Assembly: GCA_949298195.1 (NCBI GenBank)
Contig: CASFVT010000019.1
Span: 1,664-65,663, forward strand
Direction: 5' to 3'
Length of the DNA: 64,000 nucleotides
From: an uncultured Bacillota bacterium
Lineage (GTDB): Bacteria > Bacillota_I > Bacilli_A > RFN20 > CAG-826
The notes under the pieces were generated by a model that saw only the letters and a list, made by a program, of their open reading frames with translations, was not told the DNA's origin and made no database searches. Below are positions 14,475-43,513 of the stretch, one piece after another. How positions within the stretch are numbered: position 1 is the stretch's first letter; every line of letters starts with the position of its first letter. Both the position numbers and the translations under genes were made by a program.

Positions 14475-14491
14475 CCCGCACATTTTAGCGA

Positions 14492-15160: not shown

Positions 15161-15262
15161 GGGTTAATCATAGTCAACCTAGTTGCCAAATCAAATACAT
15201 TTAGTCTTTGTTACTAGGTTATCGCCGTGTCGTGGCTCGCGATTCATCATATAATCACGGCG

Positions 15263-18182: not shown

Positions 18183-19283
18183 CTAGATGCTTTCGCCCGG
18201 CCCGGCGGTTCCCGTTCCTTCGAGGGGAACGTAGTCCGATAGGTTGTCGGGATAGTCGATTCCATACGACCCGTCGGGGATACTCAGCTTGATTTCGTAG
18301 TTGAAGCTCAGGTCAAAGCCGATGCTTTGCCCCTCGCCCAACGCGAGTTCCTCAACCGACACTTCGAAGCCGAGGCCGAAGGTGAAGTTGGCCCCGGTCA
18401 GGGTTTGGGTCATGACGGCATTTTCCAACGAGACGCTCTCGAGGAGCAGAAGAAGCGAGACGTATTGGCTCGGATCCTCGGCTTCGCCCATCATCATCCT
18501 GAGGAGCTGCATGATGTTGGCTTTCTCGATGTCGACGGTGACCGAATTGCCATCCTCGACATAACTCGCACTGCCGAGGAAGGAGAAGTCGTTGTGGAGA
18601 AGGGCCACCGAATCGGCCAGCCCGGTCTTCGCCTCGGCGATTTCCTCCTCGCTCATCGAGACCGAGACAGGTGATTGGAAGAGGGGGAAGCCCTCGGGAA
18701 GGACAAGGCTCAGCATCCCGGTGATGCTTGGGGCCATCTTGCTCAAGTCGAGATACATCGTGCCTTCCTTCAAGTAGACGGAATAGGGCAGTTGGTCGGA
18801 CAAAGGCGTGGGGGTGGATGGCACTTCGGGCGTGAGGCTATTGCTCAAACCGATGGTCGCGGCGAAATCCCCGTCCCCTTCGATCCCGATCCCGAGTTCC
18901 TCGTTGGCCTGAAGGCCGGTGAACATCCCACTGGAGGAACTTTCGAACCGATCGATGGAAATGTCGACGTAAGTGATCGATTCCGGCGTGGAGTCCTGGA
19001 GGGTCGGATCGGAACCAGAGGACGAGGCCATGGCCATATCGATGTCTCCATTCATGGATAAGTCCATGTTGACGATCTCGATGTCGCTGGCCGCTGCGTA
19101 GGCCTTCCGCGAGGCCTCGAGGCGGGCTTTGAAGGCTTCTTCCGGCGTCTCCCCCGGATCGGATTGGCTCGTCATCGCCCCTCCGGCGGTCGAAGTGGAA
19201 ATAGAGGCATCTTCACTTGGCTCACATCCGGCAAGGCCGAGGGCCAAAATCACGGCGAGAAGGGGTAAAAACTGTTTTTTCAT
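18183..19283 (-). CDS. lipoprotein, unknown function
   Basis: MKKQFLPLLAVILALGLAGC signal/lipobox. The mature part is acidic and Ser/Thr-rich with no recognisable domain. Confidence 0.7.
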   Translation of the reverse strand: MKKQFLPLLAVILALGLAGCEPSEDASISTSTAGGAMTSQSDPGETPEEAFKARLEASRKAYAAASDIEIVNMDLSMNGDIDMAMASSSGSDPTLQDSTPESITYVDISIDRFESSSSGMFTGLQANEELGIGIEGDGDFAATIGLSNSLTPEVPSTPTPLSDQLPYSVYLKEGTMYLDLSKMAPSITGMLSLVLPEGFPLFQSPVSVSMSEEEIAEAKTGLADSVALLHNDFSFLGSASYVEDGNSVTVDIEKANIMQLLRMMMGEAEDPSQYVSLLLLLESVSLENAVMTQTLTGANFTFGLGFEVSVEELALGEGQSIGFDLSFNYEIKLSIPDGSYGIDYPDNLSDYVPLEGTGTAGPGESI

Positions 19284-21336: not shown

Positions 21337-21358
21337 GGCTTCCTAATTATAGGTAGGA

Positions 21359-21381
21359 GGAAGGCCGATGAAAGGCCTTCC
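21359..21381 (-). terminator. perfect 8-bp hairpin after the last gene of the nine-gene operon (no clear U-tract)
   Basis: GGAAGGCC-N7-GGCCTTCC begins 5 nt after the stop at 21386. On the minus strand it is followed by CCTACCTATAATTAGGAAG, a possible -10 and RBS for the PFK-like gene. Confidence 0.4.
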
Positions 21382-21385
21382 CGCC

Positions 21386-22495
21386 TCAAAGGGCCTCGTA
21401 ATGGGCGTAGAGATCGAGATCGCGGTTGACCGGGGTCGTGTCGACGAAATGGCCGGCGTTGGGGTCTTCTATGTCGGACGGGGCCGTCCACCAACCGGTG
21501 AAACGGTGCCCGTCGAGACTCGCGCCCGGGAGTTCGATCGTCTCCGCGGAGGGGACGCTCAGGTAGTAGGTACCCTCCTCCCCGACGATGAGCCCGGGAA
21601 GGAGCTCGATTTCGCCGCCCTCGGGATGGAAGGTCACCGTGAAATTGACCTCCGATCCAAAGGCATGGAACAAAACCCAACTCGTCGAGTTCTTGTAGTA
21701 GATGATCCTGTTCATCGTGTCGATGTAGAAGGAGCCTTCCGCGTAGTCCGCGTAGGAGGGGTTCCCGACCGGGGAACCGGCATCCTGATACCAATGGGCC
21801 CCGTTCTTGGAGGCCCCGACGTCCTCGAGGACGGCATCGGAGCCGTCGGTATAGACGATCGTCACCGTGTAACCACCGGAAACGGGGTTGAACTCGAAGG
21901 AAATGTCTTCGATCCCCCGACCGGGATCGCCCTTTTCGCCCTTCTCGATCGTCTCGACATAAGTCGAGCCGTCGTCGAGGGTGACGGTCATCGTCTTCGC
22001 GCCGGTCACGGCATCGGGTTCCGAGAACTCGATCGAGGCAATCCCGTTCCCGGTCGGGAGGATGATGCTGTCGGACAAGGAGCCGTCCGTGTAAACGAAG
22101 TAGAAACTGGTCGTCGCCCCGGCCTGATTCCGCTCATAGACGATCGAATCGATGCCGACGCCGGTCACGACCGGATAGGTAAGGAGTTCCTCTTCCCGTC
22201 CGTCGCTATATTCGACCCGGACGGTGACTTCCTCTTCGACGGGGTCATAGGTGGCTTCAAGCCCCTCGATCGAGACGCCGCTTTGCCCTTTCGGGATCGT
22301 GAAGACGGTATCCGCGATCCGGGAGTCGGTGTAGGAAATCCGGACCACCGTGTCCCCGACGTCGTTGACGGTGCTGGTCACTTCCTTGATCGAATAATTC
22401 CCGCTGCCGTTGAAGAAACCGCAGGAACTGAGCCCGAAGACGGCCGCCCCGAGCAAGGGCAGCAATAGTCCTTTCGCTTTCTTTTCCATTCTCAT
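21386..22495 (-). CDS. lipoprotein with C-terminal Listeria-Bacteroides (Flg_new) repeat
   Basis: Signal LLPLLGAAVFGLSSC. C-terminal VTFHPEGGE...GHRFTGWWTAP...DLDLYAHY matches the Flg_new/TIGR02543 repeat pattern. 4-nt overlap with the upstream gene. Confidence 0.7.
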   Translation of the reverse strand: MRMEKKAKGLLLPLLGAAVFGLSSCGFFNGSGNYSIKEVTSTVNDVGDTVVRISYTDSRIADTVFTIPKGQSGVSIEGLEATYDPVEEEVTVRVEYSDGREEELLTYPVVTGVGIDSIVYERNQAGATTSFYFVYTDGSLSDSIILPTGNGIASIEFSEPDAVTGAKTMTVTLDDGSTYVETIEKGEKGDPGRGIEDISFEFNPVSGGYTVTIVYTDGSDAVLEDVGASKNGAHWYQDAGSPVGNPSYADYAEGSFYIDTMNRIIYYKNSTSWVLFHAFGSEVNFTVTFHPEGGEIELLPGLIVGEEGTYYLSVPSAETIELPGASLDGHRFTGWWTAPSDIEDPNAGHFVDTTPVNRDLDLYAHYEAL

Positions 22496-24870
22496 TTGCC
22501 TCCTCTTTCCTTAAGGTCGTTCAGATTGACGGTCTCGCCGAATAGATATGGCGTTTCCCCTCCCCGACCGTCGATGCCGAGGTAGAAACGGAAGGGATTG
22601 CTCCCGGCCGCGAGGGGAACGCAACGGGCGAGGTAGGCGGAGTACTGGTTTCCCCCGCTTAGTCCCTCCCCGGTAAGACACGCCCGGGCGTAATCGATGC
22701 TCACTTCCTCCCCGAAGGGATTGACCATGAGTCCCGAGACATCGAGGGTCGAGGTGTTGTGCCCACCGCCATAGAAGGCGATGGCCCCTAGGACTTCCGC
22801 TTCGTCCCCGTCATTATAGACATATCCCTTCCGGGCGGCTTCTTCGCTCAGGAGGGCCTTGATCGGGAAGTAGGAGTCGATCGGGAAGTCAAGCCCTTCC
22901 GTCCCGAGGGAAGCGAGGACGGAGGAGATCTGCTCGTAGATGAGACACGAGGCGTCAATCGAGGCAATCGACTTGTAATCGTAGAAGCGGGTATCCCCGC
23001 TCAACTTGAGATGGACCGGCGAGGAGACCCCGCCGATCTGATGGGGGGAGACCGAGGTGAGTTGGAGGGCTCCCATCACCACGTCGAGGAGTTCCTGGAC
23101 GAAGGAGGGAACCCCACTATAGAGGTAGGCCCCGTTGAAGAGGCTCTCGAAGGCGATGGCGAAGAGTCCCGATCGCTCGAAGAAGCTGTCGCGGACTTCC
23201 ACCCCGTAGCCTTCGCGCAATTCGACGTCGTCGAGTCCGGACTGGATGGAGGCCATGGCCTTCATCGCCTCGTCGGGACTCACGATCGAACGGACGATCG
23301 AATCAAGGATCCGGTCGGCCGCCTTCCCGGGGGCGAGGAGCTCGTCGAGGGTACCGCTTCCGATGATGCCGTTGTAATCAAGGCCGATCCGGGTGAACTC
23401 GTCGGGCCGGCTCACTTCGTTGTTACCGAGCTTGAGGAGGAATTCCCGGGCATTGTTGAGATAACAATTGTCGAGGAGGAAATCCGGGGAGGAATAGACC
23501 CTGAGGGTCACCCGGCCGTTCCGGAGGTAGGTGTCCCTCACCTCGACATTCGAGCCGAGGACGTCCATCGTCGTGCCGACGTATTCGAGGAGGTTGAGGT
23601 CACCGACGTTGTCGACGCTCAGGAGCTTGAGGTCAGACACGGTGATGTCGTCCCCTTCCACGTACATCGTCGAGTTGTCCTGCCCGTAGGCGGTGATGAC
23701 CTGTAGCGAGTAAGGCCCGAGGAAAACATATGGGAGGGGGCCTTCGAAGTTGTCTTTCTCCCCGTCCATCGAGGGGGCCCAGCGGCCGTTGGGCTGATAG
23801 CCGCCATGGTAGGTGTAGGCCAGTTCCTGGGAGGATATCGTGAAGCCGTTTCCGATGAAGTCCTTCTGGACGTGGATGCCGGTCTTCACGAGGGAATGCT
23901 CCGCGGCGGTGCCCTCACTCGGGTTGAGGGCGAAATACTGCTTCAGGAAGTCGTGGGGATAGGTCGTCTCGAACTGATAGAGGTCGAAGGAAGAGGTTTG
24001 GGAGGGGAAGTCGAAGTAACCGAAGAGGCGGGTGTTCTGATTCAATAGCTCATCGACGAAATTCCCGTCGCCGTCCTGGACGTAGGTCGATTTGAGGGAG
24101 AGGAGGTTGCGCTGGAGGCAGATCTTCTCCCCTTCTTCCGAGAGGTTGGTCGCGGCCATGAGGTCACCGTAGTCCTTGACGTTGACCGCTTCTTCCTCGA
24201 CGTAGAAGGAATAGGTCGAGAGGACCGAAGGGGTCTTCTCGAGGCCGAAGCTCACATAGCTCTCCCCCGGGGCATTGATGGTGATGACCCCGTTGGAATA
24301 GGAAAGGTTGTTCGAATGGGCCCGCAAAACGGCCTTGTCGTCATCGTAATCGCTGTAGATGCCGAACTTCAGGTCGACGGTCGCCCGCTTCTTGGAATAT
24401 CGACCGTCGGTCGAGTAGTCGTATTCCCCGTAAGTCCTCTTCTTTTCGAAAGAATCCCCGGAAGCCGGCGTCGAAGCGTCGACGATGGTGATTGCCCCGT
24501 CTTCGTAGACGGTCGCGAGGAAGCTCCGGCTGACGCTCCCCTTCTGGTTGGAGCAGGTCAAGCGGGTCGTCCCTTCCTTCTGGGGATTGAGATAAGTTTC
24601 CTCCCCGCGGACGGTAATCGAGGCAATGTCCGGATCCGCACTCGACCAAACGAGGTCGTTGCCCGGGGCCAGGGCGAAGTTATCGTCGTAGATCGGCTCG
24701 GCGACGAGCTCGCTCTCCACGTCGACCTTGAACCCCTCGGAATCGAGGTAGTCCCATTTGATCCCGGAGATGTCGACCTCGATGAGATTCTTGATCGGGG
24801 TAATCGAAATGTAGGTGAGGATGCTCACCGCGAAGGGGATGAGGAGCAAAAGGGGGAGGGTCTTCTTCAT
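22492..24870 (-). CDS. 792-aa exported or anchored protein: Big_2-like Ig domain plus beta-helix-like region
   Basis: Start at MKKTLPLLLLIPFAVSILTY (Met 344 of track ORF 22492..25899), forming an ATGA overlap with the upstream permease. VWSSADPDIASITVRGEETYLNPQKEGTTRLTC resembles Big_2. The later repetitive V/L/N/D-rich strands suggest a right-handed beta-helix. Confidence 0.7.
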   Translation of the reverse strand: MKKTLPLLLLIPFAVSILTYISITPIKNLIEVDISGIKWDYLDSEGFKVDVESELVAEPIYDDNFALAPGNDLVWSSADPDIASITVRGEETYLNPQKEGTTRLTCSNQKGSVSRSFLATVYEDGAITIVDASTPASGDSFEKKRTYGEYDYSTDGRYSKKRATVDLKFGIYSDYDDDKAVLRAHSNNLSYSNGVITINAPGESYVSFGLEKTPSVLSTYSFYVEEEAVNVKDYGDLMAATNLSEEGEKICLQRNLLSLKSTYVQDGDGNFVDELLNQNTRLFGYFDFPSQTSSFDLYQFETTYPHDFLKQYFALNPSEGTAAEHSLVKTGIHVQKDFIGNGFTISSQELAYTYHGGYQPNGRWAPSMDGEKDNFEGPLPYVFLGPYSLQVITAYGQDNSTMYVEGDDITVSDLKLLSVDNVGDLNLLEYVGTTMDVLGSNVEVRDTYLRNGRVTLRVYSSPDFLLDNCYLNNAREFLLKLGNNEVSRPDEFTRIGLDYNGIIGSGTLDELLAPGKAADRILDSIVRSIVSPDEAMKAMASIQSGLDDVELREGYGVEVRDSFFERSGLFAIAFESLFNGAYLYSGVPSFVQELLDVVMGALQLTSVSPHQIGGVSSPVHLKLSGDTRFYDYKSIASIDASCLIYEQISSVLASLGTEGLDFPIDSYFPIKALLSEEAARKGYVYNDGDEAEVLGAIAFYGGGHNTSTLDVSGLMVNPFGEEVSIDYARACLTGEGLSGGNQYSAYLARCVPLAAGSNPFRFYLGIDGRGGETPYLFGETVNLNDLKERGGK

Positions 24871-26477
24871 ACGGTTGCCCCCATCGATAGGTAAAGCCCC
24901 TTCAGGCGGAAGGGCAGATAGCATAGCGGCAACAAGAGAAGAAGGGCCAAACCGACTTCGGAGAGATAGACGGCATAAGAAGGCAGTTTGAGGAACATGA
25001 GGAGGAAGTGCAGTCCGGCGACGAAGAGGGGAAAGAGGATGGAAATTATGGTCGGGAAGAACTCGTAAACCCCCCGCTTCCCGGTCAATGAGTAGGAGGA
25101 AATGTCGGAAAGAAGACCGTATGAGGCCACCGAGACGATGAGGAGGGAACCAGTCACGAGGGAGACGAAGAAGAGGGGCCAGGCGATTTCGCCAAAAAAG
25201 AGGAGGACGATGTTGGTCACCAGGAAGGAGAAGACGGAGACACCGACCGGGATGAGGAGCTTGTAGAAAGTGGCCTTGAGAGGGGAGACGGGAGTCGTCT
25301 TGAGAAGGAGACGGCCCTTTCCCTCCCGGGTGATGCCATCGCTCGCGCCGGAAGTGAGGATCGAGGCGAACAGGAGCAGGACCAAGAGGGTGATTCCGTT
25401 CGGAAGCTCGGAAAAGTAATCGAGGAAGATGGCGAGGTTCCCATAGAGGAGGGATGAGAGGCTCGAGATGACGACATAGGCGAGGAAGGGCTGCATGAAC
25501 AAGAGGGAGGTGAAAGAGAATAGATACGAGCCGTTGCGGAAAAGGAGGATGAATTCCTTCTTGAGGAGGGCTTTGTCGAGGGAGAGGACCTTGTTTGCTC
25601 TTCCCCCGCTTTTCCTTTTCCCTTCTTTCCCGGGGAGGGCTTCCTTGTTCCGATTGTAGAGGAAGGAGAGGAGATAGAGGCCGAGGAAGGCCATCAGGAA
25701 GACGGAACCGAGGAGAAAGAAAAGGGAACTCACGAGGTTCCCCGTCCCCCGCATGAGGGAGAAGATGGAGCTGCAGGGGATGAGCCAAGCCGCGACCTCG
25801 TGGAGGCCGGTGAGGAAAGAGGCCGAGACGTATTGGTCGAGTCGGCTCCCCTGGACGACCGAGAGGAAGAGGGAAAGAACATACTGGTAGAGGAAGCAAA
25901 GGGCGATGGCGATCAAAGTCCCGAGGATCAACTGGAGGAGGTAACGCCCGCTTAAGAAGGAGTAGACCCTCTCATAGAGGGGGAGGAGGGCCATCGTAAG
26001 CCCGATCCCAACGAAGGAGACGATGAAGGGGTAGGCGGCCGAGAGGACGTAGAAGGACGGGTCGAGGGAACGGCTGCTCCCGTAGGCGACGAGGATCGGG
26101 GTGGCCAGCAAGAGGCTCGACAAGGCGAGGCGGAGATATAGGTAAAGCCCCTTTCCGAGGATGACGTCGTCGGGAGGAATCGGGAGTGGCGAAAGGATCT
26201 TCTCGTCGATGTCCCGGTAGAGGCTCCGGTGGGCGCTCGGGAGGGTGGCCAGGGACGACAAAAGGAAATATAGGAAGAGGAACAGAACGAGGAAATCGTC
26301 GCTTCCGTAGGAGGAGAACTCCTGAAACTGGGCATCGAGGGCCAGGAAAAGATACACCTCGAGGGCGACGAAGAGGCCGGCCCCGAGGAGGAGGAAGAGG
26401 GATTTGAGGATCCGTTCGGTCAAGTTCCCCCGCGGCAGGGCTCCCTTGAACTCGTTGACGAAGATGTTGAGGATCAT
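24867..26477 (-). CDS. polytopic membrane protein, putative permease partner of the adjacent ABC ATPase
   Basis: 536 aa with 12 or more hydrophobic helices. ATGA overlaps on both sides. Size and position fit the putative-ABC-exporter type of Firmicutes. Confidence 0.65.
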   Translation of the reverse strand: MILNIFVNEFKGALPRGNLTERILKSLFLLLGAGLFVALEVYLFLALDAQFQEFSSYGSDDFLVLFLFLYFLLSSLATLPSAHRSLYRDIDEKILSPLPIPPDDVILGKGLYLYLRLALSSLLLATPILVAYGSSRSLDPSFYVLSAAYPFIVSFVGIGLTMALLPLYERVYSFLSGRYLLQLILGTLIAIALCFLYQYVLSLFLSVVQGSRLDQYVSASFLTGLHEVAAWLIPCSSIFSLMRGTGNLVSSLFFLLGSVFLMAFLGLYLLSFLYNRNKEALPGKEGKRKSGGRANKVLSLDKALLKKEFILLFRNGSYLFSFTSLLFMQPFLAYVVISSLSSLLYGNLAIFLDYFSELPNGITLLVLLLFASILTSGASDGITREGKGRLLLKTTPVSPLKATFYKLLIPVGVSVFSFLVTNIVLLFFGEIAWPLFFVSLVTGSLLIVSVASYGLLSDISSYSLTGKRGVYEFFPTIISILFPLFVAGLHFLLMFLKLPSYAVYLSEVGLALLLLLPLCYLPFRLKGLYLSMGATV

Positions 26478-27268
26478 CGGGGGTGTTCCCCGTAAACGCG
26501 GAAGAAGATGAGTTTGAGGTCCTTCCGCTTGAGGGGCTCCTTGTGGAAATCGATGAGGGTGGCGACCTTCCCTTCGTCGATGATGGCCACCCGGTCGCAG
26601 ACATCGGCGATGAGGTCGATGTTATGGGAGGTAAGGAGGATGGTGTTCCCGTTCTCCCCATAGGCCTTCATCATCGAGAGGAGGGTCTCGTAGGCCATCA
26701 CGTCGAGCCCGACCGTCGGTTCGTCGAGGATCCAGAGTTTGGGATTGTGGATGAGGGAGGCGATGAGCCCCTCTTTTTGCTTCATGCCGTGGGAATAGCC
26801 GTCGATTCGGCGGCTGAGGGCCTCTTCCCCGAGTTCGAACTTCCCGTCGAGGAAGGCGAGGTTCTTATCGAAGCTCTCCTGGCTGATCCCGTAGGCCGAG
26901 GCGACGAATTGGAGGTACTCGTAGCCGCTCATCTGCTCGTAAAGAAGGGGCTCGGAAGGCACATAGCCGTATAGCGACTTCACCTCGAGGGGATATTCGT
27001 CGACCGGGAGGCCGAAGACCTCAATCGAGCCGCTCTCGTAGCCCTTGGCCCCGATGATGGAGTCGATGGTCGTCGATTTGCCAACCCCGTTTTTGCCGAG
27101 CAGCCCGAAGATTTCCCCGCGATGGACCGTGAAATCGAGTCCCTTGAGGACTTCGTGGGAGCCGTATGATTTGTGGACGTCATGGACGGCCACCGCCTCG
27201 ACGGAGAGGTCATCGGCCAGGCGGTCGATGTCGACGATGGTCGATTTCTTGATCTTGGCCATCATCAT
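26474..27268 (-). CDS. ABC transporter ATP-binding protein
   Basis: Walker A GKNGVGKST, degenerate signature YSHGMKQK, Walker B LWILDEPTVGLD, H-loop LTSHN. Confidence 0.9.
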   Translation of the reverse strand: MMMAKIKKSTIVDIDRLADDLSVEAVAVHDVHKSYGSHEVLKGLDFTVHRGEIFGLLGKNGVGKSTTIDSIIGAKGYESGSIEVFGLPVDEYPLEVKSLYGYVPSEPLLYEQMSGYEYLQFVASAYGISQESFDKNLAFLDGKFELGEEALSRRIDGYSHGMKQKEGLIASLIHNPKLWILDEPTVGLDVMAYETLLSMMKAYGENGNTILLTSHNIDLIADVCDRVAIIDEGKVATLIDFHKEPLKRKDLKLIFFRVYGEHPR

Positions 27269-28578
27269 CTCCCCCTGATCCCCTTGATCCAGATGGCTGG
27301 ATCGACGTTCCCCCCGAGGAGGGAAACCTGGCTATGGCAATCGAGGCAAGTCAAGTCCTTTTTGCCGGTTTTGAGGAGACGTGGGGCCCCGCAGACGGGG
27401 CAGAAGAGGAGCTTCCTCCCATCGAGGGGGAGGACCAGCGAGAGGGTCTTGAATAGCCGCGGGAAAATGGATTCCGTAATCTCCGGATTGACCTCGAGGA
27501 TGCCCTCGTAAACCCCGGAGGCGTTCTTGAGGGCGATGACGTAGGAATCGCGGAGAAGGGCCAGGTTCTCGCTCTTCTTCTTGAACTCGCCATAAAGCCT
27601 GATTTCCCGCCTTGAGATTGCCCCGCGGTAGAGAATCTCGACCCTTAGGGTCTTCTCCTCGACCTTGCAGTGGTAAAGGAACCCGTCTTTGTTGAAGGCG
27701 AAGGCGGATATGACGATCTTCCCGTCCTTCCACTTGAAAGTCGGCTCCTGGGCCAGGCGGTAACCGTCCGCGAGGAGTTCCTTGAGTAGACGATAGGCGA
27801 AATAGGCGTACGGCGGTTCGTCGACTTCCTTCCCGAAGTCGCTCAGATGGGAGAGGTAATACCGGTAGAGGCGGTTGTAACGGGGATCGTGGATGAGGAT
27901 GTTGGTCGCTAGAAAGGGGGTGCTCACCTTCTTCCCCTTCCTCTCGAGGAAGCGGACGAAGGAAGATAGCGAAAGGCGCCTGGCCTTCGAAACGGCCTTC
28001 GAGAGAAGGGAAGCATTCCCCTCCTCACTCAAAGAGGAAAGGTAGGAAGCGGCCGCCTCCTCGCTGTTTTCAAGCTGGCTGATCGGGCCCGCCTCCGGGA
28101 AGATGGCCAATGGGGACTGGTAAAGGCGTTCGAGGGAACGCCCTTCCTTGATCGTCCCGCTTTCCTCGATTGAGGAAAGGCGGTCCTTGAGGCCGTCGAA
28201 GATGGCGAGGGCCACTTCGTTTTCGTAGGTGAGGAGGGAGTCCCCGTATTCCTCCCCATAGACGTATTCCGGGGCAAAGTCCCCATCCCCTTTCTTCCGC
28301 CAGAAAGAGGGCTCGAGGCTGGTCTTGTGGAACTGCTCGGGGGTAAGGGAGGCGGAGAGTTCGCTCCGAAGGACGATTTCCTCCGGTTCGCTTTTCCGGT
28401 GGGGGTTCATGGCAATGTCCATGAAGGTGTCGAGAAGGGAGGATATTTCGTTTATTTCATCCGTGCTTTGCTCGTGGTATTCGAATTCGAGCGGTTTTTC
28501 GCAGAAGGAAAGGAACCCCGCGCGTTTGACGACCAGCAGGGACAATGCCTCATTGAAACTGCTCGCAAACGAGGGCAT
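27265..28578 (-). CDS. McrC/DUF2357-like partner protein with C-terminal CxxC-N14-CxxC zinc ribbon
   Basis: 437 aa, 11 nt downstream of the McrB-like gene. LLTYENEVALAIFDGL resembles the (T)xENR motif of DUF2357/McrC by eye. A possible D-x8-EEK (KDGFLYHCKVEEK) follows. Ends with CPVCGAPRLLKTGKKDLTCLDC. Confidence 0.5.
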   Translation of the reverse strand: MPSFASSFNEALSLLVVKRAGFLSFCEKPLEFEYHEQSTDEINEISSLLDTFMDIAMNPHRKSEPEEIVLRSELSASLTPEQFHKTSLEPSFWRKKGDGDFAPEYVYGEEYGDSLLTYENEVALAIFDGLKDRLSSIEESGTIKEGRSLERLYQSPLAIFPEAGPISQLENSEEAAASYLSSLSEEGNASLLSKAVSKARRLSLSSFVRFLERKGKKVSTPFLATNILIHDPRYNRLYRYYLSHLSDFGKEVDEPPYAYFAYRLLKELLADGYRLAQEPTFKWKDGKIVISAFAFNKDGFLYHCKVEEKTLRVEILYRGAISRREIRLYGEFKKKSENLALLRDSYVIALKNASGVYEGILEVNPEITESIFPRLFKTLSLVLPLDGRKLLFCPVCGAPRLLKTGKKDLTCLDCHSQVSLLGGNVDPAIWIKGIRGR

Positions 28579-28589
28579 CTCGTCTTTCC

Positions 28590-30386
28590 TCAGCTAAAGC
28601 GCCGGAGATAGTGCGCAAGACGCTCGTGGGTGAGGGGGAAGGCGTTCTTCCCATACGTCCGGTCGATTTCGTCGCGGAGGGCGATGAGGGCGTCCTTGAC
28701 GAATTCCTCGTATCGACCCTCGAGCTTACTCGCGATCTTCTCCGCGAACATGAAGTCGAGGGCTTCTTCCTTGCTTCCCCCGCAGGCGACGAAGACCGGG
28801 ACGAAGAGCTCGATCTGGTGGTAGACGCGGTTGCCGAAGGTGATTTCGAAATCCTCATAGGTCTTGTTGAGGATGGAGCGGAACTTCGACCAGTCGGCCT
28901 TGCTGAGGCGCTTTTCCTCATCCTTCTGGGCTTCCGCGAAGAGGCCCATGAGGTGCGAATAGGAAATGGAAATCGGTTCCGGGATTTTCTTGACCGAGAA
29001 TGGCTCGTTCCGGTCGTTGAAGGAAATGACGATGGCCCGGTCGTAGACCTTGTCGGTGATCGTGTAGGTCGAATCGTCCCGGTTGGCCGTTCCGATGAAC
29101 CAGGTGGTCTCGGGGATTTTCAGGTTGCCGTCCTGGAGATGCTCCGGCGGGGTGAAGTCATAAGGGAGGTTCATGATCTTGAGAACCCGTTCGTCGAGGG
29201 GGTATTCCATGATGGATAGGAAGTCGGCGAAGTAGTACTCGATCCGGGCGATGTTCATCTCGTCGAGGACCATGACGTTGATGTCCTGGCTCTCGTAGGT
29301 GGCTTGGTAGAGGCGCTTGAGGAACTCAGTTTCGTTATAGGTCTTCGAGAAATCGTTCCAGTAGCCGAGGATGGATGTCCGGTCCCTCCAGGTGGCCTGG
29401 ACGAGGACGAAGAAGCTCTTCTCCGAGATGAAGTTGGAGAAATAACGGGCAATGGAACTCTTGCCGGTGCCCGAAAGGCCTTGGAGGATGATGAGCCGGG
29501 AGGCCGATAAGCCTGCCACGAAGGCCCGAACTGCCGTCTTCTCGTAATAGAGGCCCTCTTCCCCGGCAAGGTAATCGCGGAAGGAATCGGCGATGGTTCT
29601 CAAATCGAGTCCATCGTCGTCGAACTTCTTGACATCGACCATCTCGGCCCGGGAATCGATGAGGGAGAGGCCAGGGAAGACCCGGTTCCGGTCGAGGCCA
29701 TAGAAATCGTCGTTTGGGAGGGGGCCGCTGGCCGTCCCGACCGCGGTTGCCCGCTCACGGGTGGCGAAGGCGGAGGAAACGTCCTCCACGTCCATGACCT
29801 CGTCGACCTTGGCTTCAAGTTCCTCGAGCTTCTCGGCTTCCTCGCTTTTCGGGCTGCTCTCCTCGAGGGGCTTCCGCCGGTAAACGAGGGAATAGACGAG
29901 GAGGACAAGGAAGAAGAGGCTGAGGTAGAGGACGAGGGCCACCACGAGGGCAACGAGGAAGGATTCGCCGGTGAAGGCGAGGGATTGCCCGAGAAGGTCC
30001 ATCCCGTTCTCAAAGGCGAGGTGGGAGGCCGAGCCGATCCCGATTCCCAGCCCGAAGAGGACGATGAAGCTCGCCGCGTAGATGGAAATCCATTTGGCCG
30101 AATAGGGCTTTTCGTCGTAGTAACCGGCAAGCCTCACCTCGATGACGACCGCGAGGGCAAAGAGGAAGGCGTAGACGGCCATTAGGACGAGCATGATGTA
30201 GCTCTGCATCCCGACCGATTCGACGGTCACGAAGCCGAAGGCCGTGGCCAAGGAAGCAATCGGGTTGCCGTTCATCACCACCGTCGAGTTCGGGTCGAGG
30301 CAGATGCCGCTAAAGACGACGATCAGGAGATAGAAGAAGACAAGCGAGAGGGCAATCCCATCGATCCTTTTGAAGAGAGTTCTCAT
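28590..30386 (-). CDS. membrane-anchored McrB-like AAA+ (AAA_5) NTPase
   Basis: 598 aa. Residues 1 to about 170 form 4-5 hydrophobic helices, followed by an acidic linker. Walker A LQGLSGTGKSS, Walker B with McrB-like extension VMVLDEMNIARIEYYFADFLSIME, and McrB signature-like FIGTANRDDSTYTITDKVYDRA (compare GTMNTADRS). Confidence 0.75.
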   Translation of the reverse strand: MRTLFKRIDGIALSLVFFYLLIVVFSGICLDPNSTVVMNGNPIASLATAFGFVTVESVGMQSYIMLVLMAVYAFLFALAVVIEVRLAGYYDEKPYSAKWISIYAASFIVLFGLGIGIGSASHLAFENGMDLLGQSLAFTGESFLVALVVALVLYLSLFFLVLLVYSLVYRRKPLEESSPKSEEAEKLEELEAKVDEVMDVEDVSSAFATRERATAVGTASGPLPNDDFYGLDRNRVFPGLSLIDSRAEMVDVKKFDDDGLDLRTIADSFRDYLAGEEGLYYEKTAVRAFVAGLSASRLIILQGLSGTGKSSIARYFSNFISEKSFFVLVQATWRDRTSILGYWNDFSKTYNETEFLKRLYQATYESQDINVMVLDEMNIARIEYYFADFLSIMEYPLDERVLKIMNLPYDFTPPEHLQDGNLKIPETTWFIGTANRDDSTYTITDKVYDRAIVISFNDRNEPFSVKKIPEPISISYSHLMGLFAEAQKDEEKRLSKADWSKFRSILNKTYEDFEITFGNRVYHQIELFVPVFVACGGSKEEALDFMFAEKIASKLEGRYEEFVKDALIALRDEIDRTYGKNAFPLTHERLAHYLRRFS

Positions 30387-31309
30387 TTTTCGACCTCCTG
30401 GTTGGTTTGTTCTTCTTGTTTGGGCAGTTCGCCATCGGGAAGAAGGTACTCTTTCCCATCATAGGTAAGTACTTCCTGGAAGGAAACGTCGGCTTCCCTA
30501 TCGGGAGCGAAGGGAAGCAGGGAGAGGAGCCCCTCGGTCCTCTTCTCGATTGAGCGATCCATCTTCCTCCGGTAGTACTCGAAGATGAGGAAGCAATAGA
30601 CAATCGAGACGATGCAGATGACCCCGGCCCCGCTTTGGAGGAAGAGGACGAAGGCCCCGGCCGCCGGGATGCGGAAGCCATCGTAATGGCCGACCACCTG
30701 TTGGAACGGGAGGTAGTCGCCGTAGAAGACGTTCTGGTCGGTCTTGTCGTTCGCGTCGCCTTGGGTGATGAACATCTTCCCGTCGCTGGTGTCGACGATG
30801 TCGACTACCCGGTGGACGACGATCGAGCCGTCACTGCCTTGGTAGGCCAAGACATCGTAGAGTTCCACCTCGTCGACCTCCCGGTACGGGGTGACGACGA
30901 TGATGTCGTAGGTATTGAACTGGTCGTCCAGTCCATTCGCGAAGAGGTAGGGGTTCGAGGGGTGCTTCTCCGACATCGAGCCCGAGACGATGACGAGGGG
31001 GATATTCCCCCCGAAGTTCATTGCCGTGCCCATGAAGCGGGAGGCGAGACTATAGGCGAAGACCCCGACCAAGACGAGGAGAAGGAGGTAGGATAGTCCT
31101 TTCCCGGTGTAATGGAGGATCTTCCGCGGGAGGGATTTTTCTTTCCGGCGGTTGCTTTCCTCGATGAGGAGTTCGACATCCTCTTCCCCGCTGTCGACCG
31201 CCTCGATGATGCCCCGGAAGTAGTTCCGGAAGAGGAAGGTGAAGACGAAGGAGAGGCTAACAAGGGCGACGATGGTCACGATGAGGGAGAGGATTTCAAT
31301 GCTGCTCAT
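30383..31309 (-). CDS. sipW: SipW-type (ER/archaeal-type) signal peptidase I with N- and C-terminal extensions
   Basis: Catalytic Ser box VVSGSMSEKHP, His box VVHRVVDI and ITQGDANDKTDQ (compare TKGDNN). N-terminal helix plus charged segment, and a C-terminal helix plus tail. The stop overlaps the AAA+ gene start (ATGA). Confidence 0.8.
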   Translation of the reverse strand: MSSIEILSLIVTIVALVSLSFVFTFLFRNYFRGIIEAVDSGEEDVELLIEESNRRKEKSLPRKILHYTGKGLSYLLLLVLVGVFAYSLASRFMGTAMNFGGNIPLVIVSGSMSEKHPSNPYLFANGLDDQFNTYDIIVVTPYREVDEVELYDVLAYQGSDGSIVVHRVVDIVDTSDGKMFITQGDANDKTDQNVFYGDYLPFQQVVGHYDGFRIPAAGAFVLFLQSGAGVICIVSIVYCFLIFEYYRRKMDRSIEKRTEGLLSLLPFAPDREADVSFQEVLTYDGKEYLLPDGELPKQEEQTNQEVEK

Positions 31310-31384
31310 CTAAGTCGACCCCCTCATAAAGACACGGCCTAGCCAACGAACACGCCGGCTAGGCCATAGATGGAGAAATGGCAA

Positions 31385-32170
31385 TCAATAGCCTGCCGCC
31401 AAGTAAGGCGTGACGGTGATGGTGAACTTGGCGTTGCTGGCCTTTTCAAGGAGCGAGAGGGCCGACATGGCGACCGAGGCCGACTCCGAATTGCCATCGT
31501 AATCGCCGGGATTGCCGTATCCGAAGAAGGACCCCCACCCAAAGGAGAGCGTCAGGTTCACGTCGAGGGTAGAACCGTCGGCATTCGCGGCCACATACCC
31601 GGTGACCCCACCGTCATGGTCGGTTACAGCTTTCTTATTGAAAGTACTCGAAGAGGTTCCGGCAGCGTTCAAAGGGGTGTCCGCCTTGGCGAATTCGGTA
31701 GGAGAATCCGTGGAATTCGACACCGGGAGGACAAGATAGCTACTTGAGATGGCATCGTTGAGGTAAGAGCCGGTGGTCGTATCTTCCCCATCGGTCTTGA
31801 CGGTCATCGAGAGCTTGAAACCGCCGTAATGATCGGCGAAGGCAGCGTTCTTCACCGCATTGGTGATCTGGAAGGAGAGGCCGAAGCTCAGCTGCTCGCC
31901 ACCGCCATCCTCGGATCCGTATTGGATGAGGCCACTGGTGTCGCTCGTCGCGGCATCGAAGCGGAGGGGCGGCTCGTTGTCGACGTCCACCGCGTCGATC
32001 TTCATACTGTAATCCTTGACCTCGCCGGTGACGACGGTAATCGGACTCGTGGTATCCGGTTCTTGCTGGCTCAGGATCCAGGCGCCGAAGGCCGTGCCGG
32101 CCAAGGCGATGGTCCCGGCTCCGACCAAGACGTAGGCAATCGATTTGTTGCCCTTCAATTTGCTAGCCAT
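31385..32170 (-). CDS. secreted protein with SipW-cognate-type signal peptide (TasA/camelysin-style leader), paralog 2
   Basis: N-terminus KGNKSIAYVLVGAGTIALAGTAFGAWILS resembles the TIGR04088-type leader. Shares LSFGWGSFFGYG and a C-terminal ...FTITVTPY block with the upstream paralog. Confidence 0.6.
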   Translation of the reverse strand: MASKLKGNKSIAYVLVGAGTIALAGTAFGAWILSQQEPDTTSPITVVTGEVKDYSMKIDAVDVDNEPPLRFDAATSDTSGLIQYGSEDGGGEQLSFGLSFQITNAVKNAAFADHYGGFKLSMTVKTDGEDTTTGSYLNDAISSSYLVLPVSNSTDSPTEFAKADTPLNAAGTSSSTFNKKAVTDHDGGVTGYVAANADGSTLDVNLTLSFGWGSFFGYGNPGDYDGNSESASVAMSALSLLEKASNAKFTITVTPYLAAGY

Positions 32171-32193
32171 GTTGGTTGTTCCTTTGCTCTTTA

Positions 32194-33009
32194 TCAGGCA
32201 CCGGCCCCGTACTTTTCGACCTTGACGGTCAAGACGAGGTCCTCGCCGTTGAGGGCCTTATACATCGCATCCATCTCGGCCGCGATGTTCTGGGCAGCCG
32301 TGACGGTCAGGGCCTCGCGGCTATCGGTAGCTTCCCCGTCAAGAGCCGAACCCGAGTCATCGGCCTTGTAATAAAGGTCATTGTAGAAAGTGGCCGGGCT
32401 ACTACCGCCGAAGAAAGTCCCCCACTTGAAGCTGACTTCCTGATTCTGGACAGTGACTGTATAGGTGCCGTTGGTGGCCGTGCCGGCTGGCGTAAGATCC
32501 TGCGTGGTGGTCGCGAGGTCAACGTAGGTCCATTTGCCGTCTTGGGTCGCTGTCTCCGAAGACCGTTTGCTCCCGAGTTTGTTGCCGTCGCTAGCCACGA
32601 GGTTGGCTGCATTGGCCCCATCGGCATACCCAAGTGAGAAAACGAGCCGCAGATCGTTCTCATCGTCGGTCAGGTAACCGGAACCGTAATTGATGGTGAG
32701 GGTCGGCAGGGTGATCTTGAGATTCCCGGTGTTCGTCCCGTCCCAGCCAACGGCATGGGTATCCTCGTCGATCGTTGCGCCCGTCTCGCTGAGGGTGATT
32801 GCCAGGCCAGTGCCACTGGCCATCGTGAGTTCGACGAAATCACCGCTCACGGTGTCGACGGTGACGCCAACATTCGGATTCTGCGTGGTGTTCGAAACCG
32901 AGATGATGTAGGTAGCGGTCGCCGTGGTCAACAAGGCGATGGCTCCGAGGCCCAAAACGGTTCCGAGAATCGTCTTGCGCCGCTTTTCTAGTTTGGTCTG
33001 TTTTCTCAT
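32194..33009 (-). CDS. secreted protein with SipW-cognate-type signal peptide, paralog 1 (first gene of the operon)
   Basis: N-terminus KRRKTILGTVLGLGAIALLTTATATYIIS. Shares VSFKWGTFFGGS and ...LVLTVKVEKY with paralog 2. The RBS GGGGGG lies 5 nt upstream of the ATG. Confidence 0.6.
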   Translation of the reverse strand: MRKQTKLEKRRKTILGTVLGLGAIALLTTATATYIISVSNTTQNPNVGVTVDTVSGDFVELTMASGTGLAITLSETGATIDEDTHAVGWDGTNTGNLKITLPTLTINYGSGYLTDDENDLRLVFSLGYADGANAANLVASDGNKLGSKRSSETATQDGKWTYVDLATTTQDLTPAGTATNGTYTVTVQNQEVSFKWGTFFGGSSPATFYNDLYYKADDSGSALDGEATDSREALTVTAAQNIAAEMDAMYKALNGEDLVLTVKVEKYGAGA

Positions 33010-33061
33010 TTAGACCCCCCTTTGCTTCGCGCTGGATGAGGCAGTCGGGTCTTATGAATAA

Positions 33062-33070
33062 CCCCCCCCC
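33062..33070 (-). repeat. G9 homopolymer (C9 on the plus strand) in the operon leader
   Basis: accccccccc aacgg at 33061-33075. Lies 53-61 nt upstream of the ATG at 33009 and downstream of the candidate promoter. Confidence 0.9.
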
Positions 33071-33143
33071 AACGGAATCGACGGGACCTTCAACCGACGA
33101 ACGGACCCAACGAAGCAAGGGATGCCTTGTCCGGCGACACGCA

Positions 33144-33172
33144 TTTTTACCATTCCCAACCCCTTACTTCAA
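33144..33172 (-). promoter_or_regulatory. candidate extended -10 sigma70 promoter of the nine-gene operon
   Basis: Minus strand TTGAAG (33167-33172), a 17-nt spacer ending in TGG, then TAAAAA (33144-33149). This is the only good match in the 560-nt divergent intergenic region. Confidence 0.4.
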
Positions 33173-33568
33173 GGAAAAGACAACATCACGAAAATACCAA
33201 AACCGATATCTCCGCAAAAGCTCCTTTTTCCGTTAGTTTTTCGTAAGGTTGTTTTACCCGGCTTTTCCTCCAAAATGAGCGCCTGTGCAACGAAATTGGT
33301 AAGCCCCAGGCAACGTATGTCTTCGAAGAACAATAGCTATCATCTATTTTCGCCTCTAGAGCGACAAGACTAGCAAATAGGGGTTTTCTATCTTAACAGT
33401 TAATCTTTCTATCGCTTCTCGTGGTCATACCCGGGTCTACCTTGAAGGACATTTCCGGGTACTTCCATTCCAAGGTTACCACGGGAATGTTGCACATTTG
33501 TCATTTTCCATATAGGGGAATGGCGGTTTCTTGTTTACAATAGTCTAAACAGAATAGAGGAGCGAGCC

Positions 33569-34303
33569 ATGAGCGAAAACATCTACTTGTCCTCGAAGAA
33601 AAGAGTCGAGGACGTTCTCTCATCCACGGCCAAGATCAAAAAGGTCAACTCAATCAAAGACCTTTCGGAAGTCGATGGCTATCAAAACGGCATCAAGACT
33701 TGGATTGCCGCCCTCGCCATCGACATCCGCAACGCCGCTTCCCTCTTCTCGGAAGAGGACAACGCAGACGTCATCAGAATCACCAAGGCGTTCTTCGGGG
33801 AGGCCAACCGGATTGCTAGGTCCAATCCACGCTGCATCCAGACCGAAATCCAAGGTGACAAATTCTTTGCCTACTATGCCACCCCTGGGCAGAACGACTT
33901 GGTGCAACTCCTCGAGGACGCGGTATACCTCAACACTTTCCATGCGATGCTGATCAAGATCCTCGATCTCAAGAACATGCCGGTCTTCGACATCGGAATC
34001 GGCATTTCCAGCTCCGAGTGCATCATTGCGAGGTCAGGTGATGCCGGCTCACCATACATTTTCATCGGGGATGCCGTCTTCAATGCCACCCGTCTGGCAA
34101 GACAGGGCAATAAGGATGGCTTCGGGGAAATCATCGTCGACCGCCTCTTCTATGACAACGTCAAGAACTACGCGGCCAACGAGAAACAGGGCTACTGGGA
34201 GTTCTTCAAGAGGAAATTCTCAAAACTACTGAACATGTGGTGCTTCCACACCTCGGCAATCGACGCGGCTTACAGCGAGTGGATTGACCAGAAGGTCAAG
34301 TAA
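33569..34303 (+). CDS. stand-alone class III nucleotidyl cyclase domain protein
   Basis: 244 aa. ALAIDIRNAASLF (first metal Asp, compare FxDIxGFT), IQGDKFFAYY (second metal Asp, GDxxxA), GIGISSSECIIARSGD (compare GIHTGxVxxG) and IGDAVFNATRLARQG (compare GDxVNxAxRL with Asn/Arg). The RBS AGAGGAG lies upstream. Confidence 0.7.
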   Translation: MSENIYLSSKKRVEDVLSSTAKIKKVNSIKDLSEVDGYQNGIKTWIAALAIDIRNAASLFSEEDNADVIRITKAFFGEANRIARSNPRCIQTEIQGDKFFAYYATPGQNDLVQLLEDAVYLNTFHAMLIKILDLKNMPVFDIGIGISSSECIIARSGDAGSPYIFIGDAVFNATRLARQGNKDGFGEIIVDRLFYDNVKNYAANEKQGYWEFFKRKFSKLLNMWCFHTSAIDAAYSEWIDQKVK

Positions 34304-34321
34304 GCGATAAGTGTTAAAAAT

Positions 34322-34349
34322 GCCGGTGTCCGTAAGGGCATCGGCTTTT
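34322..34349. terminator. bidirectional intrinsic terminator
   Basis: AAAAAT-GCCGGTG-N10-CATCGGC-TTTT. Serves the cyclase gene on the plus strand, and potentially the convergent GT4 gene on the minus strand (ATTTTT follows). Confidence 0.55.
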
Positions 34350-34533
34350 CCGGTTCTACTGGCTTTGGCGTGGTGACGTTGAGAGAAATTTCAAACTAAG
34401 ACTTTCGCTTCTTACTAATGCAACGACACGCCAATAAGAACCGTTTTCAATTTGCCGTCCAAAACCACCAGCCAAGAGATCCACGTGTGCTGACAAGTGA
34501 CGGAAATCGTGTCAAAGCCGGTGCAGCTCTTAT

Positions 34534-35628
34534 TCAATGCGAGGAGCCCGCAGACGGTAGAAGGCTTACAAAGAGGTCGGCGTATTCGTTTGCCATTGTC
34601 GTGTCGGAGTGCTTTTTGGATTCCGCCAAAGCACCTTGTGAAAGCCGTTGTAGTTGCTTCGAATCTCGTAATACATTCGCTATTGTCTTGGCTGCCCCTT
34701 GGATATCACCGACTTCGAACGTATATCCGTTTTCTCCATCGTGAACCATATCGGGAACGCCCCCTACTGAGGTTGCGATTACTGGGATGCCAAATGCATT
34801 TGCCTCCAATATTACGATCGGCGACCCTTCTCTTTCGGAGGTCAAGACAAACAATTTGCTCCTTTCATATAGTTCATCTGTTTTTTGCCCCTTCCCAAAA
34901 AAATCCACATACTGGCGAATGCCAATGGCATCAGCCTCCCGTTCCAACTCCGCCTGAAGCGCTCCATATCCGGCAATCGCTCCTCTAACCTGAATCCCAA
35001 TATCGTGTAACGATTTAATGATCTTTAGGAAGTCTGATTGCCTTTTGACGGCATCCATACGCCCGACAGTCAAAAGATCATAAGTCTTGGCAGTGTGGTT
35101 GTCATTCGAAGGAAGATGGATGCCGTTGTCAATCGCTCGCACAGATGAACGATAGATCGACTCGGCTTCCCCCATCAGTCTATGGTGACATGCCACGATG
35201 ATTATGTTCCTTTTTTTGACGTTGCCACTTATTGATGCACGATAAATTGCTGGGAGATCGTTTTTGGGCTTGGCATGGATGGTATGAACGATTTTGCATC
35301 TCTTGTAATCGACGATCAGATTGAGATAAAAGACGCACGTAAGGTGAGAACTAATAATATCCGGGTCGATATGCGCAACCGTCCGTCTGAGTTCAAACAT
35401 AAAGGGGATGTCAATCGTGCATTTTTTGTGGAGGATATAGACCCGAACGGATGGGTCACGGAGGAGCGATGAATACCTACCGTCTATGCGATCGAAGAAA
35501 ACTATCAGGCTGATTTCAAACCTCGAATCGCCCTTCAAGCGATTAACCAAATCGTAAACGACTTGCGATGAGCCACCCACATCCAACGACTGGATGGCAA
35601 AGCAAAGCTTGATTCTTTTTTCTTTCAT
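34534..35628 (-). CDS. GT4-family glycosyltransferase
   Basis: Start at MKEKRIKLCFAIQSLDVGG (Met 23 of ORF 34534..35694). C-terminal EREGSPIVILEANAFGIPVIATSVGGVPDMV is the GT4 E-x7-E region. Confidence 0.85.
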   Translation of the reverse strand: MKEKRIKLCFAIQSLDVGGSSQVVYDLVNRLKGDSRFEISLIVFFDRIDGRYSSLLRDPSVRVYILHKKCTIDIPFMFELRRTVAHIDPDIISSHLTCVFYLNLIVDYKRCKIVHTIHAKPKNDLPAIYRASISGNVKKRNIIIVACHHRLMGEAESIYRSSVRAIDNGIHLPSNDNHTAKTYDLLTVGRMDAVKRQSDFLKIIKSLHDIGIQVRGAIAGYGALQAELEREADAIGIRQYVDFFGKGQKTDELYERSKLFVLTSEREGSPIVILEANAFGIPVIATSVGGVPDMVHDGENGYTFEVGDIQGAAKTIANVLRDSKQLQRLSQGALAESKKHSDTTMANEYADLFVSLLPSAGSSH

Positions 35629-35805
35629 CAACCAAAGGATACAAGAAGCGTATTCTAATGGCGAGACGCCTGCCAAGCATCCAACACGCAGCAAGGATTA
35701 TCCAGCAATCGGAGTGATAGTCGCTTTCTTTGAAATAACAGCCGCTTTTCACATTGGTCACTGTGCGAAACAATCAGTGCCCCACCAGCTAAAAACCACT
35801 AAACT

Positions 35806-38386: not shown

Positions 38387-38426
38387 AACATGTAAGGCCG
38401 TATTGATTTGAATATCCCAATGGGAT

Positions 38427-43471: not shown

Positions 43472-43513
43472 CCAAAAGCTAGACAGACGCAATTCGACCA
43501 TAGCTGGCAAACA

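Follow-up and report, generated by a model that had tools for sequence, protein, structure and literature searches.

A conserved nine-gene operon of RF39-type Bacilli encoding a predicted SipW-type signal peptidase, an McrB-family GTPase pair, an ABC exporter and surface proteins

The NxD signature, 'usually followed by E or a second D', defines a major branch of the McrB GTPases, and NxD McrBC systems linked to a signal peptidase have been named CoCoPALM (Bell et al. 2024, eLife 13:RP94800, PMC11090510). This class was treated in one paragraph and left uncharacterised, the details being deferred to a forthcoming publication. Its GTPase was described as an FtsB-like fusion (one transmembrane (TM) helix plus a coiled coil), with coiled coils on both proteins, and the signal-peptidase-associated clade was interpreted as serving pilus assembly, while defence is otherwise the role of McrBC and of the NxD clade (PMC11090510). 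A literature search for a follow-up on CoCoPALM found none, and the supplements of Bell et al. in text form do not mention it. Here we describe a nine-gene operon with a core of this type in a 64,000-nt stretch (the window) of contig CASFVT010000019.1 (assembly GCA_949298195.1) from an uncultured Bacillota bacterium. The organism is an RF39-type member of the Bacilli, with relatives in Onthovivens, Enterosoma and Alloenteromonas.

The genes of the operon, numbered g1 to g9 from the upstream end (Table 1), resemble CoCoPALM in encoding an NxD GTPase (g4) with an N-terminal fusion predicted to anchor it in the membrane and a DUF2357 partner (g5), in being linked to a signal peptidase (g3, also called sipW here) and in occurring in Bacillota. 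Unlike the CoCoPALM GTPase, g4 has four to five TM helices and no detectable similarity to FtsB. The window system also includes leader-bearing cargo proteins (g1 and g2), an ABC exporter (g6 and g7), the g8 protein and a lipoprotein with a probable Flg_new domain (g9), none of which appears in the CoCoPALM paragraph. We conclude that the operon is an RF39 elaboration of the CoCoPALM core, a class known by name but so far uncharacterised. The preliminary description of this DNA, made from its sequence alone, had presented the combination as undescribed. This stands for the ABC, beta-helix and lipoprotein parts, which are absent from Bell et al., but not for the core, which already carried the name CoCoPALM.

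Comparison with E. coli McrBC (PDB entries 6ut6, 6hz4 and 7vsr) showed a homologous GTPase domain in g4, with Walker A, Walker B and Asn signature motifs, a partner in the DUF2357 family of McrC N-terminal domains, and the two genes adjacent in the order B then C. However, g4 has a TM domain instead of the DNA-binding N-domain and a signature of the form NxD rather than NxxD, while g5 carries a zinc ribbon and no detectable PD-(D/E)xK nuclease, and the pair lies within a surface-protein operon. The PADLOC phage-defence candidate PDC-M26 offers a further point of comparison: its PDC-M26A model matched g4 and every homologue tested in the GTPase domain (124–144 bits), although the match was confined to positions ∼280–440 of the 724 in the profile (297–430 for the window g4). 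No PADLOC model, PDC-M26B included, matched the partner genes of g4, and no paper was found to mention PDC-M26, which is an untested candidate.

The upstream part of the operon recalls the SipW matrix-fibre modules tapA-sipW-tasA and calY-sipW of Bacillus and sipW-bsaABC of Clostridium perfringens. These also have a dedicated SipW beside small secreted proteins, leaders with an aromatic-containing end after a long hydrophobic stretch, and multiplied subunit genes, but contain no GTPase pair, ABC exporter, beta-helix protein or lipoprotein. Unlike the proteins of those modules, g1 and g2 match neither TIGR04088 nor TasA/camelysin, and the predicted fold has no TasA-like neighbour. The window SipW is longer, with an extra TM helix and cytosolic segments, and falls below the Bacillus SipW equivalog cutoff. 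Literature linking SipW with McrB was limited to E. coli strain genotypes, and a search for RF39 together with TasA found nothing.

Layout and conservation of the operon

Inspection of the open reading frames (ORFs) of the window placed all nine genes on the minus strand at the coordinates given by the preliminary description. Each begins with ATG, ends with TGA and is preceded by a purine-rich, Shine-Dalgarno-like stretch (9/9 genes). Five junctions (g3/g4, g5/g6, g6/g7, g7/g8 and g8/g9) are 4-nt ATGA overlaps and the others are gaps of 23 nt (g1–g2), 75 nt (g2–sipW) and 11 nt (g4–g5), exactly as had been claimed; the first of these overlaps also agrees with the claim that the stop codon of sipW overlaps the start of a gene for a polytopic AAA+ protein. 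The G+C content of the operon (58.3%) is like that of the surrounding genome and contrasts with a 45% G+C island just upstream. No second copy of the system was found within the window.

Table 1. Position of the operon genes and of the associated non-coding features in the window
Feature	Position	Strand	Basis
Upstream intergenic region, presumed promoter and 5′ untranslated region	33010..33568	-	559-nt gap to the divergent gene at 33569
g1, 271 amino acids (aa), leader-bearing, putative surface or fibre subunit	32194..33009	-	ORF confirmed, paralogue of g2
g2, 261 aa, paralogue of g1	31385..32170	-	leader ends GTAFGAWIL; C-terminal motif common to g1
Stem-loop between g2 and sipW, likely attenuator or partial terminator	31333..31368	-	16 bp, 9 G-C; folding energy
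g3, 308 aa, predicted SipW/ER-type signal peptidase I	30383..31309	-	TIGR02228 above cutoff
g4, 598 aa, predicted membrane-anchored McrB-family GTPase, NxD clade	28590..30386	-	AAA_5, McrB PDB matches, motifs
g5, 437 aa, predicted McrC-like partner: DUF2357-type N-domain, middle domain, CxxC...CxxC zinc ribbon	27265..28578	-	DUF2357 matches of orthologues
g6, 264 aa, ABC ATPase, ABC-2/DrrA/GldA-like exporter type	26474..27268	-	ABC_tran 79.2 bits
g7, 536 aa, polytopic ABC permease	24867..26477	-	PF16949 ABC_tran_2
g8, 792 aa, N-terminal TM/signal anchor and extracytoplasmic region	22492..24870	-	TM prediction, weak orthologue matches
g9, 369 aa, lipoprotein, repeated G-x-GI beta units, probable C-terminal Flg_new/InlB-B-repeat domain	21386..22495	-	lipobox, family profile
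Terminal stem-loop overlapping the g9 stop codon, no U-tract	21355..21386	-	folding energy

Hidden Markov models built from the operon were used to scan 129 related loci, of which 109 were informative and 20 too short to judge. The full order g1/g2-sipW-g4-g5-ABC-permease-g8-g9 (type 1) was present in 39/129 loci and a rearranged order (type 2), cargo-sipW-g4-g5-g9-extra leader proteins-ABC-permease-g8, in 12/129, while 31/129 had SipW beside the g4-g5 pair but lacked the full set. SipW adjoins the pair in 82 of the 109 informative loci, and g5 directly follows g4 wherever the sequence allows. Since the same order recurs in 39 independent loci, and a rearranged form in 12 more, the arrangement goes far beyond chance; the co-conservation of the nine genes, on which the preliminary description had made its proposal depend, was thus borne out.

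Relatives of g4 are encoded in at least 595 species-level genomes. The loci of Clostridia, Erysipelotrichaceae and Acholeplasmataceae have the form sipW-g4-g5(-sipW) and are flanked by two to five small proteins whose leaders are of the '...xAW(F/Y)' kind. These leaders and that of RF39 can be aligned, but the mature domains are unrelated; homology between the RF39 and the Clostridial cargo was accordingly rejected, the alignment being limited to the leader. The core of SipW, NxD GTPase and g5 is common to many Bacillota, and the ABC exporter, g8 and g9 are RF39-specific additions.

Some small genomes contain two or three paralogous systems: L019 and L038 are from UMGS236, L069 and L095 from SUG2459, and L085 and L108 from HGM10921. 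On contig CALVXH010000007.1, a type-1 and a type-2 operon (L035 and L066) lie in tandem. A g4-g5-g4 variant with no SipW nearby was seen in metagenome-assembled genomes of Clostridia (L100, L109, L113, L121, L122, L127 and L129). The idea that the host might lack a wall was dropped, RF39 bacteria being predicted to be mostly walled and spore-forming (PMC10868615).

Proteins encoded by the operon

The g4 protein scored 25.5 bits with AAA_5 (gathering threshold (GA), 22) and matched the McrB model NF008457 with E = 1.6e-5; its sole PDB matches below E = 0.001 were the E. coli McrB entries 6ut6, 7vsr and 6hz4 (E ∼5e-5). Four to five hydrophobic TM segments were predicted within residues 1–165, followed by an acidic linker, a charged stretch of ∼30 residues, and by the GTPase domain at ∼278–460. 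Among 50 family members, the Walker A motif GxSGTGK[ST] (GLSGTGKS in g4) and the Walker B motif MVLDEMNI were invariant or nearly so, and the signature GT[ACIV]N-x-D-[DE]-S was found in 50/50. Judged by its sequence, g4 is a membrane-anchored McrB-family GTPase of the NxD clade, which agrees with its earlier designation as McrB-like and polytopic. Searches of Pfam and NCBIfam found no DNA-binding family on g4, the TM domain occupying that N-terminal place.

The possibility that the N-terminus of g4 is an FtsB-like domain was considered and rejected: hhalign against E. coli FtsB gave a probability of 0.25%, the FtsB/DivIC families of Pfam matched none of 10 g4 homologues (both being tests of low sensitivity), and the region contains four to five TM helices. 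Relatives of g4 that consist of the GTPase domain only, with 33–41% identity, were observed on plasmids of Deinococcus, cyanobacteria, Rhodoferax and Polaromonas (H1–H10), and others on two faecal phage contigs, including the human-faecal MT835511.1 (H11). No TM-fused g4 was found on plasmids or phages, where no match covered 80% or more of the protein.

On its own, the window g5 matched no family. Nine of its 26 orthologues, however, matched DUF2357, three of them above the GA (35.1, 31.6 and 29.1 bits versus 23.3), and the matched region is that containing the invariant residues W93, PE103–104 and YEN118–120 of g5. TN225–226 and four Cys residues are likewise invariant, the latter making up the C-terminal zinc ribbon. 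Nuclease families of the PDDEXK/DUF524 type were not found in g5 or in the 26 orthologues, and beyond residue 234 there is no invariant Lys or acidic position. The g5 product is thus predicted to be an McrC-like DUF2357/zinc-ribbon partner without a detectable nuclease: the preliminary description was right about the partner and its zinc ribbon, but the DUF524/PD-(D/E)xK domain that it had considered was not seen. An AlphaFold2 (AF2) model of g5 built with five homologues was poor (pLDDT 56.5, pTM 0.42); the longest helix in it has 36 residues, and its Foldseek matches were meaningless.

The signal peptidase encoded by g3 scored 54.4 bits with TIGR02228 over residues 100–244 (cutoff 51.85), so that its early identification as a SipW holds. 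With the Bacillus SipW equivalog NF046067 it reached 69.6 bits against a cutoff of 190. It therefore appears to be of the SipW type, but is no orthologue of Bacillus SipW at the equivalog level. TM helices were predicted at residues 9–27, 71–89 and 219–237, with extra or long cytosolic segments and a C-terminal tail. The translation contains GSMS, VVHRVV and QGDAND, in which we take GSMS, HRV and GDAN to be the Ser, His and GDxN catalytic boxes of S26B peptidases.

The g1 and g2 proteins, whose genes adjoin this dedicated sipW, have leaders with a basic n-region and a long hydrophobic stretch ending in G-(F/A)-A-(T/S)-W-(I/V)-(I/V); that of g1 consists of MRKQTKLEKRRKT, a hydrophobic stretch and ATATYII. 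The two proteins share the C-terminal motif FxWGSFFG..(S/N)P..YYN and are distant paralogues (hhalign probability 99.3%, E = 2e-20). Their family comprises 1339 clusters at 50% identity, and a profile search with the g1 family returned only close relatives among the best 150 matches, none of them linking it to a known family. Searches of Pfam and NCBIfam found no family on g1, and the g1/g2 profiles matched no PDB sequence. An AF2 model of g1 from a 120-sequence alignment was confident (pLDDT 77.8, pTM 0.74), with a beta-rich core at residues 53–270; its best Foldseek match had an E of 0.15 and a TM score below 0.2. Scanned with TIGR04088, two of ten distant 'AWF'-leader proteins gave sub-threshold matches (11.5 and 10 bits versus 19). 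These results portray g1/g2 as a large uncharacterised family with a SipW-like leader, predicted from sequence and not demonstrably TasA-like. A TasA-like identity was rejected, there being no profile match in the PDB and no structural match in the PDB or BFVD.

The g1/g2 genes vary from one to eight copies per locus and diverge fastest, with 24–48% identity as against 45–82% for g4 and g6. Together with the extra leader-bearing proteins of ∼960 aa found at some loci, this variation in copies resembles a set of major and minor subunits plus an adhesin. At L063 (2868–8877) the family is represented by seven tandem paralogues upstream of sipW. The extra leader-bearing proteins of the RF39 operons, among them those of ∼960 aa, lie for example at L006 (5319–6050 and 7071–9956) and L057 (14101–14880 and 14877–17765), and count GSAAYLVE and EAGYIIPD among their leaders. 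They may be tip proteins or adhesins; no Pfam family was found on them.

The remaining genes encode the exporter and the two larger surface proteins. The best NCBIfam subfamilies for the ABC_tran domain of g6 were DrrA and GldA, while g7 scored 30.6 bits with PF16949 (GA, 25.7) and has ∼10–12 predicted hydrophobic segments. With ATPase and permease both above threshold and their genes joined by an ATGA overlap, the ABC exporter proposed at the outset is well founded. The g8 protein has a single TM helix at residues 5–23 and, in the window, no Pfam or NCBIfam family; Beta_helix was matched by 2/16 and Big_2 by 1/16 of its orthologues, and its profile weakly matched endopolygalacturonase 1k5c (E = 0.0086). 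These are weak sequence signals of Ig-like and right-handed beta-helix structure in its extracytoplasmic region. The size of 792 aa given for g8 was correct, but 'giant' overstates it, and its Big_2/beta-helix nature is weakly supported. The g9 protein carries the lipobox LSSC with Cys25. Its own Flg_new score (21.5 bits) lies below the GA of 27, but the family profile matched the InlB B-repeat structure 2y5p with E = 4.3e-5, which favours the reading of g9 as a lipoprotein with a Flg_new/InlB-B-repeat domain.

Hairpins, transcript ends and genomic surroundings

The stem-loop in the g2–sipW gap has a folding energy of -33.4 kcal/mol (z = -4.5). Most type-1 loci have a stem-loop in this place, after the last cargo gene, but these are unrelated in sequence; the one in the window is likely an attenuator or partial terminator. 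The terminal hairpin is weaker (-23.3 kcal/mol, z = -3.6), lacks a U-run and was not called in a terminator scan; moreover, a PFK gene starts on the same strand at 21336, 23 nt past it. It is thus uncertain where the transcript ends.

Consensus promoter scans found no sigma-70-like site upstream of g1, and none at 33144–33172, so that the candidate promoter placed there by the preliminary description is unsupported; three sites were called in the region against 3.5 expected by chance. The same description had bounded the operon by one promoter and one strong hairpin. The terminal hairpin does exist, but the promoter gained no support, and the picture is incomplete because the stronger, positionally kept hairpin in the g2–sipW gap had been missed. 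A search of the window against Rfam found no RNA family.

On the operon strand, 53–61 nt before the start codon of g1 (33062–33070), there is a G9 homopolymer that might be a tract for phase variation. The 64 kb contain only one other G/C run of at least eight, and just a few of the orthologous loci (L005, L007, L010, L062 and L119) have a comparable upstream tract.

The operon is flanked by glycolysis genes and a glycan island, with no defence genes. The island (34000–46500; ∼45% G+C versus ∼57%), probably a surface-glycan cluster gained by horizontal transfer, lies directly upstream and has genes for a GT4 glycosyltransferase (34534–35694), a Wzy_C-like protein (37148–38386) and a Polysacc_synt flippase (38427–40031). 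The divergent ORF at 33569–34303 (+; 244 aa, GIGISSSECIIARSGDAG…IGDAVFNATRLARQG) had no Pfam match at E <= 0.001. By eye, it resembles the core of a class III nucleotidyl cyclase and could be a regulator or a signalling enzyme. Elsewhere in the window, a 728-aa ORF (12855–15041, -) and a 366-aa lipoprotein (18183–19283, -, lipobox LAGC) belong to no Pfam family; between them lie genes for a cation-efflux protein (15227–16453) and a patatin-like phospholipase (16904–18142).

Possible roles of the system

With moderate confidence, we read the nine genes as one conserved RF39 system that exports, processes and deploys its own g1/g2 proteins, most likely as a filament or a surface layer. This reading is favoured because the gene order is co-conserved, SipW is adjacent, the leaders belong to a shared class and the cargo genes vary in copy number as those of subunits do. 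It is also favoured because a TM domain replaces the DNA-binding domain in g4, g5 has no detectable nuclease and the flanks are not those of a defence island, and because the operon has the G+C content of the genome, its genes are translationally coupled by ATGA overlaps, and the NxD clade linked to signal peptidases has been interpreted in terms of pili (PMC11090510). The 'one dedicated machine' of the preliminary description thus remains the best interpretation, although it rests on association rather than on demonstration.

Under this reading, g1/g2 would be transcribed in excess, the positionally conserved hairpin after g2 attenuating read-through into the machinery genes. The basic-hydrophobic leader would insert g1/g2 in the membrane, where SipW, to judge from its adjacency and from the shared class of leaders, may cut near A-(T/S)-W/Y-I-I. 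Production of SipW and g4 is coupled by the ATGA overlap, and the two proteins may also associate in the membrane. By analogy with the E. coli McrBC structures, g4 would form a hexameric GTPase ring on the cytoplasmic face, plugged and stimulated by the DUF2357 domain of g5. More speculatively, GTP hydrolysis could, by way of the g4 TM domain, drive a gate or do mechanical work, coupling cleavage to the release or polymerisation of subunits, and outside the membrane g6/g7, g8 and g9 could have the parts of an exporter, a base, an anchor or an adhesin.

Taken further, and now only tentatively, the NxD McrB ring with its nuclease-less McrC-like plug may be the energy-transducing core of an uncharacterised Gram-positive assembly system for surface filaments or layers, with SipW as the leader peptidase. 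Such a system would be a GTP-driven counterpart of PilB/PilC/PilD logic, built on an exapted restriction-enzyme motor and spread widely among gut Bacillota, with at least 595 species genomes, and g1/g2 would be a structurally new class of subunit.

Several observations weigh against a filament or surface-layer system. The g4-g5 pair occurs without SipW in 27 of the 109 informative loci and therefore can work without it. TIGR04088 matched neither g1 and g2 nor 30 of their relatives, the TasA/camelysin families (TasA/Peptidase_M73) did not match g1/g2, and Foldseek with the confident g1 model found no neighbour in the PDB or BFVD, pilin-like, TasA-like or other. The label 'SipW-type substrates' that had been given to g1/g2 is weaker than it seemed, as it reflects leader resemblance and adjacency only. 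The structure model of g5 is too poor to use (pLDDT 56.5), the internal hairpin could separate two transcription units, and the role ascribed to the GTPase is reached wholly by guilt by association. Finally, the defence-candidate model PDC-M26A matches the GTPase domain of g4 with 124 bits, and relatives of this domain occur on plasmids.

One alternative is an export and processing pathway for surface or secreted cargo that does not polymerise, such as a monomeric coat protein, an adhesin or an enzyme, in which the GTPase pair would regulate, or control the quality of, SipW cleavage or leader-peptide clearance rather than drive assembly. The predicted fold of g1, which is neither pilin-like nor TasA-like, fits such a pathway, as does the presence of an ABC exporter; further, a conserved core together with cargo families that differ completely from one lineage to another is what a general cargo handler would lead one to expect. 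Tandem arrays of small paralogous cargo genes (up to eight) and the attenuator-like hairpin are, however, typical of structural subunits, and we consider this pathway rather unlikely. That g4-g5 is an independent module for conflict or defence, descended from McrBC type IV restriction and lying within the surface operon or guarding it (for example, by sensing phage at a pilus receptor) without a part in assembly, seems more improbable still. Apart from this case, McrBC and the NxD clade serve in defence (PMC11090510), PDC-M26A recognises the GTPase domain, relatives of that domain are carried by plasmids and by two faecal phage contigs, and the pair is found without SipW in 27 loci, with some loci of the form g4-g5-g4. 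Yet no nuclease or effector domain was detectable in g5 or the neighbouring genes, the partner PDC-M26B was never matched, g4 has a membrane anchor and was not found in its TM-fused form on plasmids or phages, and the flanks contain no defence genes. The pair also keeps a fixed, translationally coupled place beside SipW across orders and in two operon architectures, and synteny this stable at 45–77% identity is unusual for defence islands.

The TasA/CotN-SipW proteins of Bacillus were originally associated with the spore, and by analogy the structure might be an appendage or coat layer of the spore rather than of the vegetative cell, a variant of the filament or surface-layer reading that differs in site only. 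Most RF39 bacteria are predicted to have a wall and the ability to sporulate (PMC10868615), and the core also occurs in spore-forming Clostridia; but neither sporulation genes nor recognisable sporulation promoters were seen in the window, and the core is also present in loci of Acholeplasmataceae and Erysipelotrichaceae. We attach only a slight probability to a spore location.

If the nine genes do serve to build a filament or surface layer, a machine for protein export or surface assembly would contain a motor that has been known only from the restriction of DNA, and this would constitute a new Gram-positive route of surface-structure biogenesis. A restriction GTPase exapted for a surface-protein pathway would be surprising, widespread and directly testable, and the reading would provide a function for families that have none: g1/g2 with their 1339 clusters, the DUF2357/zinc-ribbon partners, g8 and g9. 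The operon also gives concrete, testable content to CoCoPALM, so far a name only. Uncultured gut bacteria with reduced genomes carry the system in abundance, and some of them devote more than 30 kb to two or three paralogous copies. To our knowledge, RF39 bacteria have been seen repeatedly in surveys of the human and animal gut and have never been cultured; should the filament or surface-layer reading be true, this system would likely be their apparatus for adhesion or colonisation.

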